A stretch of DNA of 64,000 nucleotides from Candidatus Gastranaerophilales bacterium (GTDB lineage Bacteria > Cyanobacteriota > Vampirovibrionia > Gastranaerophilales > Gastranaerophilaceae), in the NCBI GenBank assembly GCA_944323995.1, contig CALUUN010000006.1, positions 2,807-66,806 of the forward strand. Direction: 5' to 3'. Positions 6,809-32,186 of this stretch are shown piece by piece. The translations under genes and the position numbers were made by a program. The notes under the pieces were generated by a model. The model searched no databases. It was not told the origin of the DNA and worked only from the letters and a program-made list of their open reading frames with translations. How positions within the stretch are numbered: the first letter of the stretch is position 1; each line of letters opens with the position of its first letter.

Positions 6809-6835
6809 TCTTTAATTATACTATAAATAAAACTA

Positions 6836-6864
6836 TTTACAAAAATCAAAAAATCTGCTATATT
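6836..6864 (+). promoter_or_regulatory. sigma-70-type promoter of pilin-like gene copy 1
   Basis: TTTACA (6836-6841), a 17-nt spacer, then TATATT (6859-6864). The same architecture occurs at 25820-25848. Confidence 0.6.
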
Positions 6865-7092
6865 AAAACAGTAGTACGACATAAGAACAACGAAAGGGGC
6901 TAAAAGTATGATGAATAGTGGATTTCAGCCTAAGGGGGTACTTCTTTAAGCTCTCACCGTGCGGGTTTCGGGGTATTTTGGAGTAAAGCGTTAAGCAAAA
7001 GCACCGCAGAGAGTGCATTTGCAGACTCGGTAAATTGCAGCGATTATGCGTCCTGTCATTGCGAGGAGCGAAGCGACGTCGCAATCGCAAGG
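6865..7092 (+). promoter_or_regulatory. long conserved 5' leader (copy 1) with mini-ORF 6908-6949 and a G5 tract
   Basis: 6856-7038 aligns to 25840-26029 with 5 substitutions and one 6-nt indel by my alignment. A palindromic repeat insertion lies at 7039-7102. Confidence 0.55.
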
Positions 7093-8253
7093 TTGGTAAA
7101 ATGCAACGACAATGCGATTACTACGTCGAATGCTGCGCATTCTCCTCGTAATGACAAGACTGTAAAAAGGAGCGTCGCAATCGCAAAACCGATAAAATGT
7201 GGTAGTAAGCGCAAAAAGGCCGCCTTCACTTTAGCGGAAGTATTGATAACCTTAGCAATTATCGGAATAGTCGCAGCACTGACAATCCCGACACTAGTGC
7301 AGAATTTCCAGCAAGATGCATGGGATACAGCATCTGAAGTATTCCAAAGAAAACTTGAAGAATCGTTAAAGGTTATGAATGTTCAGGGAACCTTAGCAGG
7401 CTATACAACAACAGAAGCATTTGTTGATGAACTTTCTAAACATATTAAGATAACAAGAATATGCGATAACGATGATATTACAACATGCTTTGCAGATAAA
7501 GTTACATGGGGAACAGAGAATGAAGAAGTAGCGATGGCGGATGTAAAAAGAGCATCACACTTCGGACAAGATAGCTGGGGAACAAATACTGTAGGAGTGC
7601 AGTTTGCAAACGGAGTAAATGCAGTATTAGCATATAACCCCGAGTGCGTACAGAACCAGTTTAGTAATCAAATAACAGGAACAAGCTGCTTGGCAATATT
7701 GTATGACGTAGACGGATTTAAGAATCCAAATACACAGAATAAAGATTTAAGAAGTATAAACGTATCAAGTTTAGGCGGAAGTTCATGTTCATTTGAAGTA
7801 GACGGAATATGTTTCGGAACACTTTTCCAACCGACAGCATTAACAGCAGCAGATTGTAATGCAAACAAAGACAAATACGGTATACAAACCTGTAGAACAA
7901 CAGATGACGATTTCTGGGGCGGCGCAATGAAAGCATGTGCAGATCAAGGAAAGCGATTACCGACGGACAGTGAGCTATTAGCATTAGCAAATGATTTATA
8001 CGGTAAAGACATGTCAGGTGGAGACGATGATTTAGTCGAAGGTACCATGGATGAAGACAAAGCAAGCTCATACGGCTTCACTCTCACTGACCTAGGTGGC
8101 GGAATCAGCGGCTTCTACCTGTGGTCCGGTCAGGAGACGGACGCTCGCGACGCGCACGCGCGCGCATTCGGCTCCGTGGGCACGGGCTGGCTCTCGAATG
8201 GCGACAGAGACGGCTCCGTCCCGGGCTTCTGGGCGGTTTGCGTAGGTGAATAG
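7093..8253 (+). CDS. pilin-like protein (prepilin-type N-terminal methylation-like motif) with DUF1566/C-type-lectin-like C-terminal domain and VR-like tail, copy 1
   Basis: KKAAFTLAEVLITLAIIGIVAALTIPTL. The C-terminal domain reads WGGAMKACADQGKRLPTDSELLALAND...FYLWSGQE...AVCVGE. The start is uncertain: the track uses TTG 7093, and an in-frame ATC at 7180 lies 7 nt after AAGGAG (7167-7172). Confidence 0.75.
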   Translation: MVKCNDNAITTSNAAHSPRNDKTVKRSVAIAKPIKCGSKRKKAAFTLAEVLITLAIIGIVAALTIPTLVQNFQQDAWDTASEVFQRKLEESLKVMNVQGTLAGYTTTEAFVDELSKHIKITRICDNDDITTCFADKVTWGTENEEVAMADVKRASHFGQDSWGTNTVGVQFANGVNAVLAYNPECVQNQFSNQITGTSCLAILYDVDGFKNPNTQNKDLRSINVSSLGGSSCSFEVDGICFGTLFQPTALTAADCNANKDKYGIQTCRTTDDDFWGGAMKACADQGKRLPTDSELLALANDLYGKDMSGGDDDLVEGTMDEDKASSYGFTLTDLGGGISGFYLWSGQETDARDAHARAFGSVGTGWLSNGDRDGSVPGFWAVCVGE

Positions 8254-8264
8254 CAGCAGACTAG

Positions 8265-8285
8265 CCTCTCCCCTTGTGGGAGAGG
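8265..8285. repeat. perfect 8-bp-stem hairpin CCTCTCCC-cttgt-GGGAGAGG, 12 nt after the stop codon; repeated at 27327-27347
   Basis: The arms are exact reverse complements. No T-run follows, so it is not a canonical terminator. An identical 21-mer lies downstream of copy 2. Confidence 0.8.
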
Positions 8286-8290
8286 CCTTG

Positions 8291-8335
8291 CTTACGTTGG
8301 TTCGCTTTACTCCTCAAGGTGGGAGGGGATTTCAG
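8291..8335. repeat. dispersed repeat cttacgttggttcgctttaYtcctcaagg..gggag..tttcag
   Basis: A near-identical copy lies at 27552-27596 and a partial copy at 27515-27546. Confidence 0.75.
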
Positions 8336-25750: not shown

Positions 25751-25819
25751 GATAACTCTATATTAACATAAATAATTTTGCTATTTTAAAATTCAATCAA
25801 AAAGAGCAGAAAAAAGCAC

Positions 25820-25848
25820 TTGCCAAAATTCAAAAAAAATGCTATATT
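25820..25848 (+). promoter_or_regulatory. sigma-70-type promoter of pilin-like gene copy 2
   Basis: TTGCCA (25820-25825), a 17-nt spacer, then TATATT (25843-25848). Confidence 0.6.
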
Positions 25849-26127
25849 AAAACAGTAGTACGACACAAGAGCAACGAAAGGGGCTAAAAGTATGATGAAT
25901 AGTGGATTTCAGCCTAAATGGGGGGGGGTACTTCTTTAAGCTCTCACCGTGCGGGTTTCGGGGTATTTTGGAGTAAAGCGATAAGCAAAAGCACCGCGCA
26001 GAGTGCATTTGCAGACTCGGTAAATTGCAACGATAATGCGATTACTACGTCGAATGCTGCGCATTCTCCTCGTAATGACAAGGGATACAACCCTCTACCT
26101 TTGGGAGAGGGTGGCACGCAGTGCCGG
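25849..26127 (+). promoter_or_regulatory. long conserved 5' leader (copy 2) with mini-ORF 25892-25939, a G9 tract (25920-25928) and palindromic repeats
   Basis: Near-identical to 6865-7038. It continues with the element aatgcgattactacgtcgaatgctgcgcattctcctcgtaatgacaag, which is shared with 7113-7158. Confidence 0.55.
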
Positions 26128-27162
26128 GTGAGGGTCAAAAAGGCCGCCTTTACTCTTGCGGAAGTCCTGATAACTCTTGCGATTATAGGAATAGTCGCAG
26201 CATTAACAATCCCGACGTTAATTCAGAATTATCAAGAAAGAGCATGGAACACAGCATCACAGGTATTCCAGAGAAAACTCGGCGAAGCATTAAGGGTTAT
26301 GAATGTTCAGGGAACCTTAGCAGGTTATACAACAACAGAAGCGTTTGTTGATGAATTATCTAAACATATCAAGATAACAAGAATATGTGATAACGATGAT
26401 ATTACAACATGCTTTTCTGATACCGTAACCTGGGGTGATGAAGAAGTTGATATGTCTAAAGTTAAAAAAGCAAAAAACTTCGGACAAAACGACTGGGATA
26501 CAAACACGGTAGCAGTACAGTTTGCTAATGGCGTTAACGGCGTAATAGCATACAATCCGGATTGCAGACAGAACCAATTCAGTAATGATGTAATAACAGT
26601 AGGAGAAACCGGAATAGGCACAGATTGTCTTGCAATATTATATGACGTAGACGGATTTAAGAACCCTAATACCGAAGGTAAAGATTTAAAGAATCTAAAC
26701 GTAACAAGTTTAGCAGGCAGCAACTGTGCAATAGAACTAAGTGACGGAACATGCTTTACCGCACCATTCTATCCAACAGCAGTAACAAAAGCAGAATGCG
26801 ACCAATTAGTAGCAGAGGGTTATCCGATAAAAGAGTGTTATCACGAAAGTGACCGCTGGGCCGGCGCAGTAAAAGCATGCCATGATATGGGCTCAAGTTT
26901 ACCGAGTGATACAGAACTGATGAAACTTGCAGAAGAGTTATATAAAGACGCAAGCGGGGCGTCACTCACAGACAACAGAAATAACGACCTTGCAGTATCA
27001 ATGGGATTTATCTCCTCTCCCGGCAGTCCGTTTTACCTGTGGTCGAGTGAGGAGTACAGCAAGTACTACGCGTACTACCGCTACTTCAACTCCGCGCACA
27101 CGTACCGGAACTACAGCAGCCGCATCAACAGCAGCAATCAGGCGGTGTGCTTATGTGATTAA
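26128..27162 (+). CDS. pilin-like protein with DUF1566/C-type-lectin-like C-terminal domain and VR-like tail, copy 2
   Basis: The in-frame GTG at 26128 gives MRVKKAAFTLAEVLITLAIIGIVAALTIPTL. The C-terminal domain reads WAGAVKACHDMGSSLPSDTELMKLAEELY...FYLWSSEE...AVCLCD. The track ORF extends to ATG 25918 through the leader. Confidence 0.75.
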   Translation: MRVKKAAFTLAEVLITLAIIGIVAALTIPTLIQNYQERAWNTASQVFQRKLGEALRVMNVQGTLAGYTTTEAFVDELSKHIKITRICDNDDITTCFSDTVTWGDEEVDMSKVKKAKNFGQNDWDTNTVAVQFANGVNGVIAYNPDCRQNQFSNDVITVGETGIGTDCLAILYDVDGFKNPNTEGKDLKNLNVTSLAGSNCAIELSDGTCFTAPFYPTAVTKAECDQLVAEGYPIKECYHESDRWAGAVKACHDMGSSLPSDTELMKLAEELYKDASGASLTDNRNNDLAVSMGFISSPGSPFYLWSSEEYSKYYAYYRYFNSAHTYRNYSSRINSSNQAVCLCD

Positions 27163-27181
27163 ATTTTCCAATTCCTAATTC

Positions 27182-27206
27182 GCGCGATTTTTCCAGAAAA
27201 TCGCGC
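27182..27206. repeat. perfect 10-bp-stem hairpin GCGCGATTTT-tccag-AAAATCGCGC, 20 nt after the stop codon
   Basis: The arms are exact reverse complements with a 5-nt loop. It is followed by cccgcc with no T-run, so it is not a canonical terminator. Confidence 0.8.
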
Positions 27207-27207
27207 C

Positions 27208-27258
27208 CGCCAAGGGCACCGTGGCTCCTGCCTCTGCTCGGCTTGCTTAGGTGATTGA
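27208..27258 (+). pseudogene. vestigial third copy of the VR-type 3' end (reads ...GSCLCSACLGD-stop)
   Basis: cgc caa ggg cac cgt ggc tcc tgc ctc tgc tcg gct tgc tta ggt gat tga. The 20-mer at 27244-27263 matches 27148-27167 at 17 of 20 positions (17 of the 19 positions spanning tgctta..aattt), and the ending parallels tgc gta ggt gaa tag of copy 1. Confidence 0.55.
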
Positions 27259-27326
27259 ATTTCTTTGTTTTAATAATGCGGTATTTGTAACTTTCCACAA
27301 GTGCCGCTTTTTTAACAGCTGAATTT

Positions 27327-27657
27327 CCTCTCCCCTTGTGGGAGAGGCAGAATTTCAACACGAGGAACGAGTGTTAGAAATTCAGGTGAGGGGTAATTTG
27401 AGAACTTCATGCATATTTAGACCCCTCACCCGCATTTGTAGTTCACTGCGTTCACACAACTGCGGCCTCTCACCTTCACTTTGTTACGGAAGCAGGCTCA
27501 CACAACTCGTTCCTCGTTGGTTCGCTTTGCTCCTCAAGGGGAGAGGCTATTCTTACGTTGGTTCGCTTTATTCCTCAAGGGGGGAGGGAGTTTCAGGCAT
27601 ATCAGTACCGCAGCAATGCGATTACCACGTCGCTTTGTGCTTATCGGATAATGACAA
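27327..27657. repeat. cluster of nested palindromic/dispersed repeat elements (noncoding, GC-richer)
   Basis: Contains hairpin 27327-27347 (identical to 8265-8285); inverted repeat 27356-27376 with 27499-27519; a 9-bp stem 27385-27393 with 27422-27430; repeat copies at 27515-27546 and 27552-27596; and element 27615-27657, related to 7113-7158 and 26036-26081. Confidence 0.75.
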
Positions 27658-31460: not shown

Positions 31461-32186
31461 TTAGTGTGCCGCAATACTACAGTGATTGTCTTTCCATATA
31501 ATGGCAGAGCCTCCTTGAGTATTGATTTCCTCTTCACGGATTTTCATACAGTCGGCTTCTGTAGTACAAGCCCTCAGATTTTCTAAAGAACACGTCACCA
31601 TCGCCAGTAAAATGCTTGTTTCATCAGTCAATAACCCGTTACCTGATAAAGAAAACATAAACATGTCCTTCCCGAATGTATTAGGCTCACTTCTGCCGTT
31701 AAGGTCTGCATAGAAATTAATTTCACTGCTCTGCGGCATTCCCATATAAGAAATCCCATCTGCTGTCTGGAATATCGGTGCGTATTTTTCATTCCCTGCA
31801 AAACTTATTTTTTGGTTATTTATTGTATATTCTTCTCCAAATGTCTGTATTATGTCCGGGCTTGAATTGTCACGTACAATTTTGAATACTTTTTTGTATT
31901 CATCAAGATAGCAGTCTATATCGCTGCATTGCATTATCGCCAAATCTTTTACGTCAAATACCTGCTCGTTTGACATCATCAGTTTGAACCCGTTTGTCAT
32001 TATATTTACTGCTTTTTTATATCTGGTTTCAAGTACTTTATCATTATAATTATTTAATAACGTCGGAATTGTTAATGCAGCAACAACGCCGATAATTGCT
32101 AATGTTATCAATACTTCCGCGAGTGTAAAAGCGGCTTTTGCGGCTGTAACCTTTTTTCTTTTGCTTTGTTCAAAATTTTTAGCCAT
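31461..32186 (-). CDS. pilin-like protein (prepilin-type N-terminus), third paralog without VR-like tail
   Basis: MAKNFEQSKRKKVTAAKAAFTLAEVLITLAIIGVVAALTIPTLLNNY. The C-terminal half is unrelated to the DUF1566-like domain. Confidence 0.7.
   Translation of the reverse strand: MAKNFEQSKRKKVTAAKAAFTLAEVLITLAIIGVVAALTIPTLLNNYNDKVLETRYKKAVNIMTNGFKLMMSNEQVFDVKDLAIMQCSDIDCYLDEYKKVFKIVRDNSSPDIIQTFGEEYTINNQKISFAGNEKYAPIFQTADGISYMGMPQSSEINFYADLNGRSEPNTFGKDMFMFSLSGNGLLTDETSILLAMVTCSLENLRACTTEADCMKIREEEINTQGGSAIIWKDNHCSIAAH

Follow-up and report, generated by a model that had tools for sequence, protein, structure and literature searches.

To our knowledge, diversity-generating retroelements (DGRs) alone among prokaryotic systems randomise the surfaces of proteins deliberately, and the roles of their cellular targets are largely unknown. 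The prototype DGR is the Mtd/Brt system of Bordetella phage BPP-1. In Neisseria, pilus variation involves pilE/pilS gene conversion and poly-G phase variation of pilC. Here we describe a gene at 7093-8253 of a 64,000-nt stretch of contig CALUUN010000006.1 from a Candidatus Gastranaerophilales bacterium (hereafter the window, whose numbering is used throughout). The gene encodes a type IV pilin-like protein with a hypervariable C-terminus, and we consider it likely that positions 8110-8231 are the variable region (VR) of a DGR target, with 8232-8253 as its fixed 3' anchor. Judged by its sequence pattern, the gene is one of many remote DGR targets.

Like the BPP-1 target, the gene ends in a variable tract of approximately 130-140 nt with a fixed GC-rich 3' anchor (the initiation of mutagenic homing sequence, IMH), and this copy is followed shortly downstream by a hairpin. 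Unlike in BPP-1, where the target is a single adjacent phage tail-fibre gene, the putative target here is cellular, multi-copy and remote, and the hairpin is not kept among loci. In Treponema, seven remote DGR targets have been documented, more than 100 kb from the reverse transcriptase (RT) (PMC5758913). The locus is similar to the T. denticola TvpA and Legionella LdtA DGRs, which are chromosomal and non-phage, act on paralogous surface proteins with the same C-terminal VR, and have most copies distant from the RT (PMC5758913); in all of these the VR ends the open reading frame (ORF) and follows the logic of AAC to NNC conversion. The Treponema and Legionella targets are lipoproteins, whereas those described here are type IV pilin-like, occupy at least 12 loci and fall into two VR classes. 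Unlike in those systems, the RT and the template repeat (TR) were not located, and neither FGE-sulfatase nor DUF1566 is recognised in the C-terminal module.

Type V pilus adhesins of Bacteroides are diversified by DGRs whose cassettes have been identified (bioRxiv 10.1101/2024.11.15.621889). There, as would be the case here, the DGR is aimed at an adhesive pilus component of a host-associated bacterium; the pilin class (type IV) and the lineage differ here, and the cassette is identified in Bacteroides alone. Modular type IV pilins, in which a pilin N-terminus carries an extra globular module, are represented by PilB and PilC of Streptococcus sanguinis (PMC8179133). In both cases the module would be placed on the filament, where it would bind ligands; unlike the S. 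sanguinis modules, that of the present protein would be hypervariable through a retroelement. A GspG-type pilin domain with a VR has been mentioned in passing (PMC11661182). A modular type IV pilin is an unusual host class for a DGR, for which the searchable literature offered the type V pili of Bacteroides and the passing GspG mention; the DGR survey supplements examined contained no pilin or Melainabacteria entries.

In the mechanism that we propose, a TR of approximately 140 nt elsewhere in the genome would be transcribed to an RNA copy, which the DGR RT would copy while misreading template adenines. The resulting cDNA would replace the 3' end of the pilin gene, so that template AAC codons would become NNC and GAA-type codons GNN, with the remaining bases copied faithfully. 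The conserved N-terminal helix would place the protein in a pilus or pseudopilus, and the C-terminal module would show the randomised residues as a binding surface.

A sequence-only reading of this DNA had drawn attention to the GC-rich end of the gene, reporting 72 G/C in the 100 nt of 8131-8230 and 19 NNC codons among the 31 of 8137-8229. Base counting reproduced both figures exactly; by comparison, codons ending in C make up 18% of the 300 that lie upstream within the gene. The A content was 12.9% in 8111-8250 versus 37% upstream. When the 64 kb were scanned in 100-nt segments, mean GC was 39% (sd 6.9), with the maximum of 72% at 8131-8230, and every segment with at least 62% GC lay within 8061-8300 save one (5861). 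The VR is the most GC-rich and most A-poor part of the window. The earlier reading had also started the tract at 8060; the GC-rich C-terminus was borne out, and this start was not, since the tract that is uniform among relatives runs from 8110 (GGCTTC) to 8252. The first variable base of the VR is 8116 and the last 8231, and approximately 37 variable sites are interleaved with bases fixed in all relatives.

Close homologs of the gene (80-88% identity) are located at different genomic loci, and the pilin genes therefore constitute a multi-copy family. Among 81 close homologs, the proteins are near-invariant up to the last 45 residues, after which highly variable columns (about 3 bits) alternate with nearly fixed ones (about 0 bits). 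The C-terminus of this gene, designated type A, reads LWSGQETDARxAHxRxFxSVxTxWxSxxxRDxSxPxLWAVCVGE. In 83 distinct type-A peptides, 11 columns had entropies of 2.7-3.6 bits, and K, E, Q, M and W, the five residues without any NNC codon, filled only 5 of 913 cells. Two more columns were A, G, V, E or D in 73 and 79 of the 83 peptides, as predicted for GNN.

Type-A VR DNA was obtained from other loci and samples (L004-L008, L010 and L013), and the type-A repeat can be given as the nucleotide query GGCTTCAACCTGTGGTCCGGTCAGGA...TTCAACTCCGTGAACACGAACTGGAACTCG. Of 141 bases, 105 were identical in six VRs from different loci, strains and samples, among them 41 of the 47 at third codon positions. Upstream of these six VRs, the adjoining 300 nt were only 65-85% alike, with 30 of 100 third positions identical and 70 polymorphic. 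Polymorphic sites at codon positions 1, 2 and 3 numbered 14, 16 and 6 in the VR, versus 46, 31 and 70 upstream, and many polymorphic VR sites held three or four alleles. VR similarity is uncoupled from flank similarity: L007 and L008 were 95.7% identical upstream and 85% in the VR, and L005 and L008 65% upstream and 80% in the VR. L006 and L007, and likewise L004 and L008, are the same loci by their downstream flanks, yet their variable codons differ. A family member with an unvaried C-terminus (L010 1165-2427, minus strand) encodes the same '...WAVCV' ending in codons of the usual AT-rich kind, so the GC-rich NNC texture is imposed and not intrinsic to the domain. AT-rich C-termini without NNC texture were seen in this L010 gene and in L014 1650-2816, 10001-11224 and 19621-20862 (for example ...GDRFTYGPYWAVCVH); these members are, on the pattern of their codons, undiversified relatives that provide an internal control.

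The GC jump and the protein variability by themselves would be compatible with paralogs that simply diverged under diversifying selection, or with a GC-rich domain gained by horizontal transfer. We give such explanations almost no credence: 41 of 47 third positions stay fixed in the VR and the adjacent 300 nt are saturated with synonymous changes, the fixed bases are the same across loci whose flanks are 65-85% identical, the residue sets are limited to NNC and GNN coding, and a related paralog uses AT-rich codons for the same fold ending. Because nothing else explains the combined DNA pattern, we infer a shared template with randomisation at defined bases, which is DGR mutagenic retrohoming. 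The sequence-only reading had proposed a DGR VR with NNC codons derived from template AAC, and this is upheld by the fixed bases shared among loci, the variability at positions 1 and 2, the NNC/GNN residue sets and the IMH-like end. On the product side, the tests with a clear outcome all agreed with a DGR target: variation largely at sites expected from AAC to NNC conversion (an indirect test), identical scaffold bases across loci, and a VR at the ORF end with a fixed 3' anchor.

The 3' end of the repeat provides the fixed part of this pattern. AVCVGE was kept in 83 of 83 peptides, and GTA (with a synonymous third base at 8244) and GAA were unchanged in 8 of 8 DNA sequences. Past the stop codon the loci are unrelated, and homology stops there. 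The stretch 8232-8253, 22 nt without any variation, appears to behave as an IMH-like 3' anchor that escapes overwriting.

Features of the putative DGR target gene and its paralog, in window coordinates.
Feature	Coordinates	Strand	Basis or sequence
Putative VR proper	8110..8231	+	DNA alignments of six and of eight sequences; entropy and NNC analysis of 83 peptides
Invariant 3' end of repeat, IMH-like	8232..8253	+	GCGGTTTGCGTAGGTGAATAG = AVCVGE and stop
C-terminal globular module, 145 aa (predicted)	7816..8250	+	AlphaFold2 pLDDT 94.7, pTM 0.87
Target gene (putative), modular type IV pilin-like	7093..8253	+	386 aa from TTG 7093; ORF list
Prepilin N-terminal methylation motif and start of hydrophobic alpha-1 helix	7207..7281	+	KKAA/FTLAEVLITLAIIGIVAALT
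Shared leader of VR-bearing paralogs	6826..7203	+	Repeats D3, D5 and D6 with 25810-26082; nine-region alignment
Putative paralog VR, type B, in 25918-27162	27031..27162	+	WSSEExSKxxAYxRxFxSTxTxR....RxxSxxQAVCL..
Hairpin, perfect 9-bp stem, 5-nt loop	8264..8286	.	GCCTCTCCC CTTGT GGGAGAGGC, 11 nt past stop; fold prediction

The ORF 7093-8253 and its paralog 25918-27162 were present in the ORF list and the repeat analysis, and the codon-by-codon contrast with 27034-27162 agreed with the description given in the earlier reading. The paralog does have an NNC-type VR; the two VRs are not products of one shared template, as the fixed bases differ. The type B consensus ends ...RxxSxxQAVCLAE, and in 19 type-B peptides there were 17 variable columns, with 0-1 residues outside NNC coding. 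Type B has TCG AGT GAG where type A has TCC GGT CAG, GCG where it has GTG, and CGG where it has TGG. For this reason the paralog VR was rejected as the template of 8110-8252. Two VR classes exist, and therefore two templates are predicted.

At least 12 VR-bearing loci were found across the related genomes. Three VR targets lie within approximately 28 kb at this locus, the third being a type-B pilin paralog (...FWLWSSEELSKDNAYYRYFSSTYT...QAVCLAE) at L001 3-1082, about 1.5-2.6 kb before window position 1. Around 60-95 nt past the stop codon of the paralog, in 27163-27260, BLAST returned a weak match (GGCTCCTGCCTCTGCTCGGCTTGCTTAGGTGATTGA versus GGCTCCGTCCCGGGCTTCTGGGCGGTTTGCGTAGGTGAATAG, 80% over 25 nt); it looks as if this stretch could be a decayed type-A VR 3' end that was displaced by the type-B end. 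Other copies have also changed. P0047 and P0125 carry frameshifted VRs (…SVSRTGSRMATEAAPTRTFGRFA), a 3-nt VR insertion is fixed in 10 cluster members of P0004, and P0024/L011 (11133-11274) is 70% like the deduced template and A-richer. On the strength of these sequences, the P0047, P0125, P0004 and P0024 targets appear to be decaying or frozen, which is a caveat to DGR writing.

The host protein is a pilin, and cassette recombination or gene conversion among the many paralogs, in the style of Neisseria pilE/pilS and with no retroelement, was considered. The locus does share with Neisseria pilus-associated surface variation, mosaic recombination among copies and a variable G-tract, which here is in the leader. 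The bodies of orthologous genes are mosaic, with L006 and L007 about 95% identical in some blocks and about 70% in others. This gene (W1) and L008 have the 3' half of the VR in common (GAC AGA GAC GGC TCC GTC CCG GGC) and differ in the 5' half. Because paralogs recombine and W1 and L008 share half a VR, the compared VR sequences are not fully independent. Cassette shuffling, however, can't produce independent variation of up to four alleles at positions 1 and 2 with frozen third positions, and it leaves unexplained the near-absence of K, E, Q, M and W at 11 columns in 83 peptides. The codon-wise randomisation seen here is typical of reverse-transcription mutagenesis and unlike the cassette exchange of Neisseria. 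We therefore regard gene conversion as a very unlikely source of the variation; recombination probably redistributes VR segments and isn't the source of their diversity.

Several observations weigh against DGR writing of this tract. Eight of its adenines never vary (8132, 8135, 8137, 8141, 8156, 8182, 8206 and 8208), and the Arg codon AGA at 8206-8208 was constant in 8 of 8 DNA sequences. Selection is not the cause of the AGA constancy, because CGA and AGG would be silent. Taken at face value in the alignments, the invariant adenines are at odds with a mutagenesis that strikes each template A equally. Differences also occurred at positions that are not candidate adenines: L007 has T>G at 8227, and C/T differences lie at 8199 and 8202. 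The VR was identical among strains with 30-34 differences over 13.8 kb (0.26%), and the same VR was present in approximately 21 contigs from two cohorts; NODE_496 (ENA ERZ24773470) was 100% identical to the window over 13.8 kb. This strain or its relatives were found in assemblies ERZ24773470, ERZ24773346, ERZ28614933, ERZ15838865 (NODE_27) and GCA_949293275.1. Since it is identical in strains 0.26% apart, the VR here has not been rewritten recently, and there was no sign of current activity.

The search for the cassette was negative. No RT was found in the window by a YxDD scan, by Pfam on the larger ORFs beyond the called-gene tables of L001, L018 and L021, or in those tables. For the flanks, the tables reached about -7.6 kb and +8.3 kb and listed no RVT_1, and none was found within 10 kb of approximately 18 paralog loci. 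No TR was found in the window, where a degenerate pattern (at most 3 mismatches) and sensitive BLAST recovered just the two VRs, and 23 fetched loci contained no further copy of the repeat. The earlier statement that the window holds neither RT nor TR was thus confirmed by motif, Pfam, pattern and BLAST scans. Adenine specificity is therefore read indirectly, from the VR products, and the template sequence is deduced from the aligned VRs.

Wider searches gave the following. All-AAC template probes had 0 matches in genome_contigs and metagenome_contigs, in which the lineage is scarcely represented. A general type-A VR pattern had 0 matches among 185,579 species genomes and returned 2 small VR contigs in metagenome_contigs, and type A, A+B and B patterns had no match in viral_contigs. 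Because these collections barely include the lineage, the DNA-collection negatives are uninformative on the TR. The deduced template, searched as protein (three concatenated ORFs), matched only a VR fragment in a 5.8-billion-protein index. Phage records searched by blastn, and viral contigs searched by protein and by alignment, gave no match, and an Rfam scan of the window returned one tRNA and nothing else.

The fold of the module also belongs with these points. The sequence-only reading had assigned it to the DUF1566/Lcl class of C-type lectin (CLec) folds; Pfam did not support this, and the fold and the distant relatives gave a weak suggestion in its favour. The module has 211 representative relatives among 1.84 billion proteins. 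The AlphaFold2 model of the module by itself has high confidence and consists of three helices followed by a beta sheet, with the last strands and loops encoded by the VR. Foldseek with the module model found nothing significant (best E 0.74 in PDB and 1.3 in BFVD); the weak top matches (E 0.7-3) were CLec-like, including intimin D3, EgtB/SenA, the TSG-6 link module and phage DUF1566 and Fib_succ_major proteins. Foldseek with the full-length model returned noise only, and sequence searches of PDB with the module gave no match. The window protein had no Pfam match to Lcl_C (DUF1566) or FGE-sulfatase above the gathering score. Lcl_C was detected in 1 of 76 close relatives (E=0.3); among 114 distant relatives it was detected in 2 (best E 0.001) and FGE-sulfatase in 1 (E 0.0029). 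The 'G.RLPT..EL..LA' motif is reminiscent of DUF1566. The DUF1566/CLec label is a plausible lead and the modelled module is weakly CLec-like; a CLec fold is not established.

The lack of recent rewriting bears on a further explanation, namely that the tract is a fossil or orphan VR, written by a DGR in the past and now frozen, with the DGR itself either gone or on a mobile element that comes and goes. In its favour are the identical tract in the strains 0.26% apart, across the approximately 21 contigs and two cohorts; the lack of an RT or TR in about 80 kb around the gene and near the approximately 18 paralog loci; and the decaying or fixed VRs of paralogs (P0024/L011, P0004, P0047 and P0125). 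Against it, the fixed bases, synonymous ones included, are 100% the same as at other loci and in distant strains, which argues for recent templating versus paralog divergence. Other loci do differ between related strains, and a remote target is nothing unusual for a chromosomal DGR (PMC5758913). On balance, we find a fossil VR rather unlikely, with perhaps a minor share of the probability. In a variant of the DGR reading, the RT and TR may be non-chromosomal and provided by a mobile element.

A non-canonical targeted hypermutation system, using a different class of RT or a template inside another gene, would leave the same product pattern. It would account for the lack of a canonical cassette beside any of the approximately 18 targets, for the adenines that escape variation, AGA notably, and for the lack of an ORF of the deduced template in the 5.8-billion-protein index. 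Such a system draws on absence only, in a lineage that is essentially missing from searchable DNA collections, and all of the positive features fit DGR products; we consider it highly improbable and retain a DGR as the likely author of the tract.

The host protein is, by its architecture, a modular type IV pilin. The pilin-like nature proposed in the earlier reading was supported by Pfam N_methyl (27.7 bits, cut-off 21.2) and TIGR02532 (22.2 bits, cut-off 16.3). A profile of 76 relatives matched solved type IV pilins along their alpha-1 helix, among them PilA and, at 2.9e-8, geopilin. FTLAEV has Glu at position 5. Gly is not present at -1 of the prepilin peptidase site (KKAA/FTLAEV, with the slash at the cleavage site), where Ala is found instead, as it is in this family. 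The protein had 2586 homologs at E<=1e-5, and an identical protein (P0122/P0001) is present in public assemblies. No PilB/PilT-type assembly ATPase or peptidase was identified in the 64 kb window. T2SSE-family ATPases lie close to paralogs on related contigs (L014 12862-13932 and L018 635-2017), and the gene content near paralog loci comprises LdpA, flagellar export genes and many pilins, which would suit a Melainabacteria-like gut bacterium. A further N_methyl protein, shorter at 241 aa and lacking any VR-like end, is encoded at 31461-32186 on the minus strand.

The true start of 7093-8253 is uncertain because the GTG start of most paralogs is absent in this copy. That start (MRVKKAAFTLAEV) is at 26128 in the paralog and is missing from 7160-7210. 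Candidates are TTG 7093 and a non-canonical ATC at 7180, 8 nt past AGGAG. No short leader was found, there being no ATG, GTG or TTG near the cleavage site, and the leader from TTG 7093 is approximately 46 aa. A 66-nt in-frame leader insertion at 7051-7116, which includes CATTGCGAGGAGCGAAGCGACGTCGCAATCGC, is private to this copy and its orthologues. The L014 19621-20862 paralog (minus strand) has the same variant sequence upstream of the KKAA site and is likewise without the GTG start.

The ORF and its paralog align in blocks of 74-96% identity from about 270 nt before the coding region to about codon 200. A leader of approximately 300 nt is common to every VR-bearing paralog (6826-7203 and 25810-26135 in the window, and L001, L004, L006, L007, L013, L014 and L018); a promoter scan gave a promoter-like site at 6836-6864. 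Directly 3' of an ATG in these leaders is a G-tract, ATG+G9 in most copies and G13 in L014, with the tract of the paralog at 25920-25928. At this locus, the G-tract differed across near-identical strains: G5 without ATG in the window (6934-6938), G6 in L018 and ATG+G9 in L001. These length differences could be slipped-strand phase variation or poly-G assembly noise.

The hairpin 21-mer (8265-8285) recurs at 27327-27347. The hairpin could be one of the target-site kind or could just belong to a repeat or a terminator; as a conserved DGR element it was rejected, since other loci have different hairpins or none. Many paralogs have, on either side, short repeats built on CCTCTCCCCTTGTGGGAGAGG and GGTGAGGGG (8278-8335 and 27539-27596), which were also found downstream of L005, L006, L007 and L009. 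They are REP- or MITE-like and read '...PLPLGEGG...' in over-extended ORFs. Contigs often end just past a VR or hold the pilin gene alone, such as L013 11140-11383 and many of 1-2 kb (P0027, P0037, P0043, P0054 and P0155-P0162). Contig breaks at VR ends are consistent with a repeated variable family and may be a reason why the cassette was not found near the paralogs examined.

A wider picture can be offered tentatively, and we hold it as possible only: an uncultured, flagellated, AT-rich gut bacterium with at least a dozen modular type IV pilins, whose tips would be DGR-rewritten from one or two remote templates and whose shared leaders carry slippage-prone G-tracts. In this picture, variation of pilus binding would have two layers, on/off phase variation and retroelement hypermutation. 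Three features stand out: the existence of two VR classes, how many loci there are, and the variable G-tract in the leader that they share. The comparison further shows how a DGR target can be recognised by comparison alone, from frozen third positions and NNC-restricted residues, when the cassette is unassembled. A large family of DGR-written tips on type IV pilin scaffolds, if true, would link the mechanism with a display machine that is already well understood, and would suggest pili that adapt to ligands or host surfaces in a gut lineage about which little is known.

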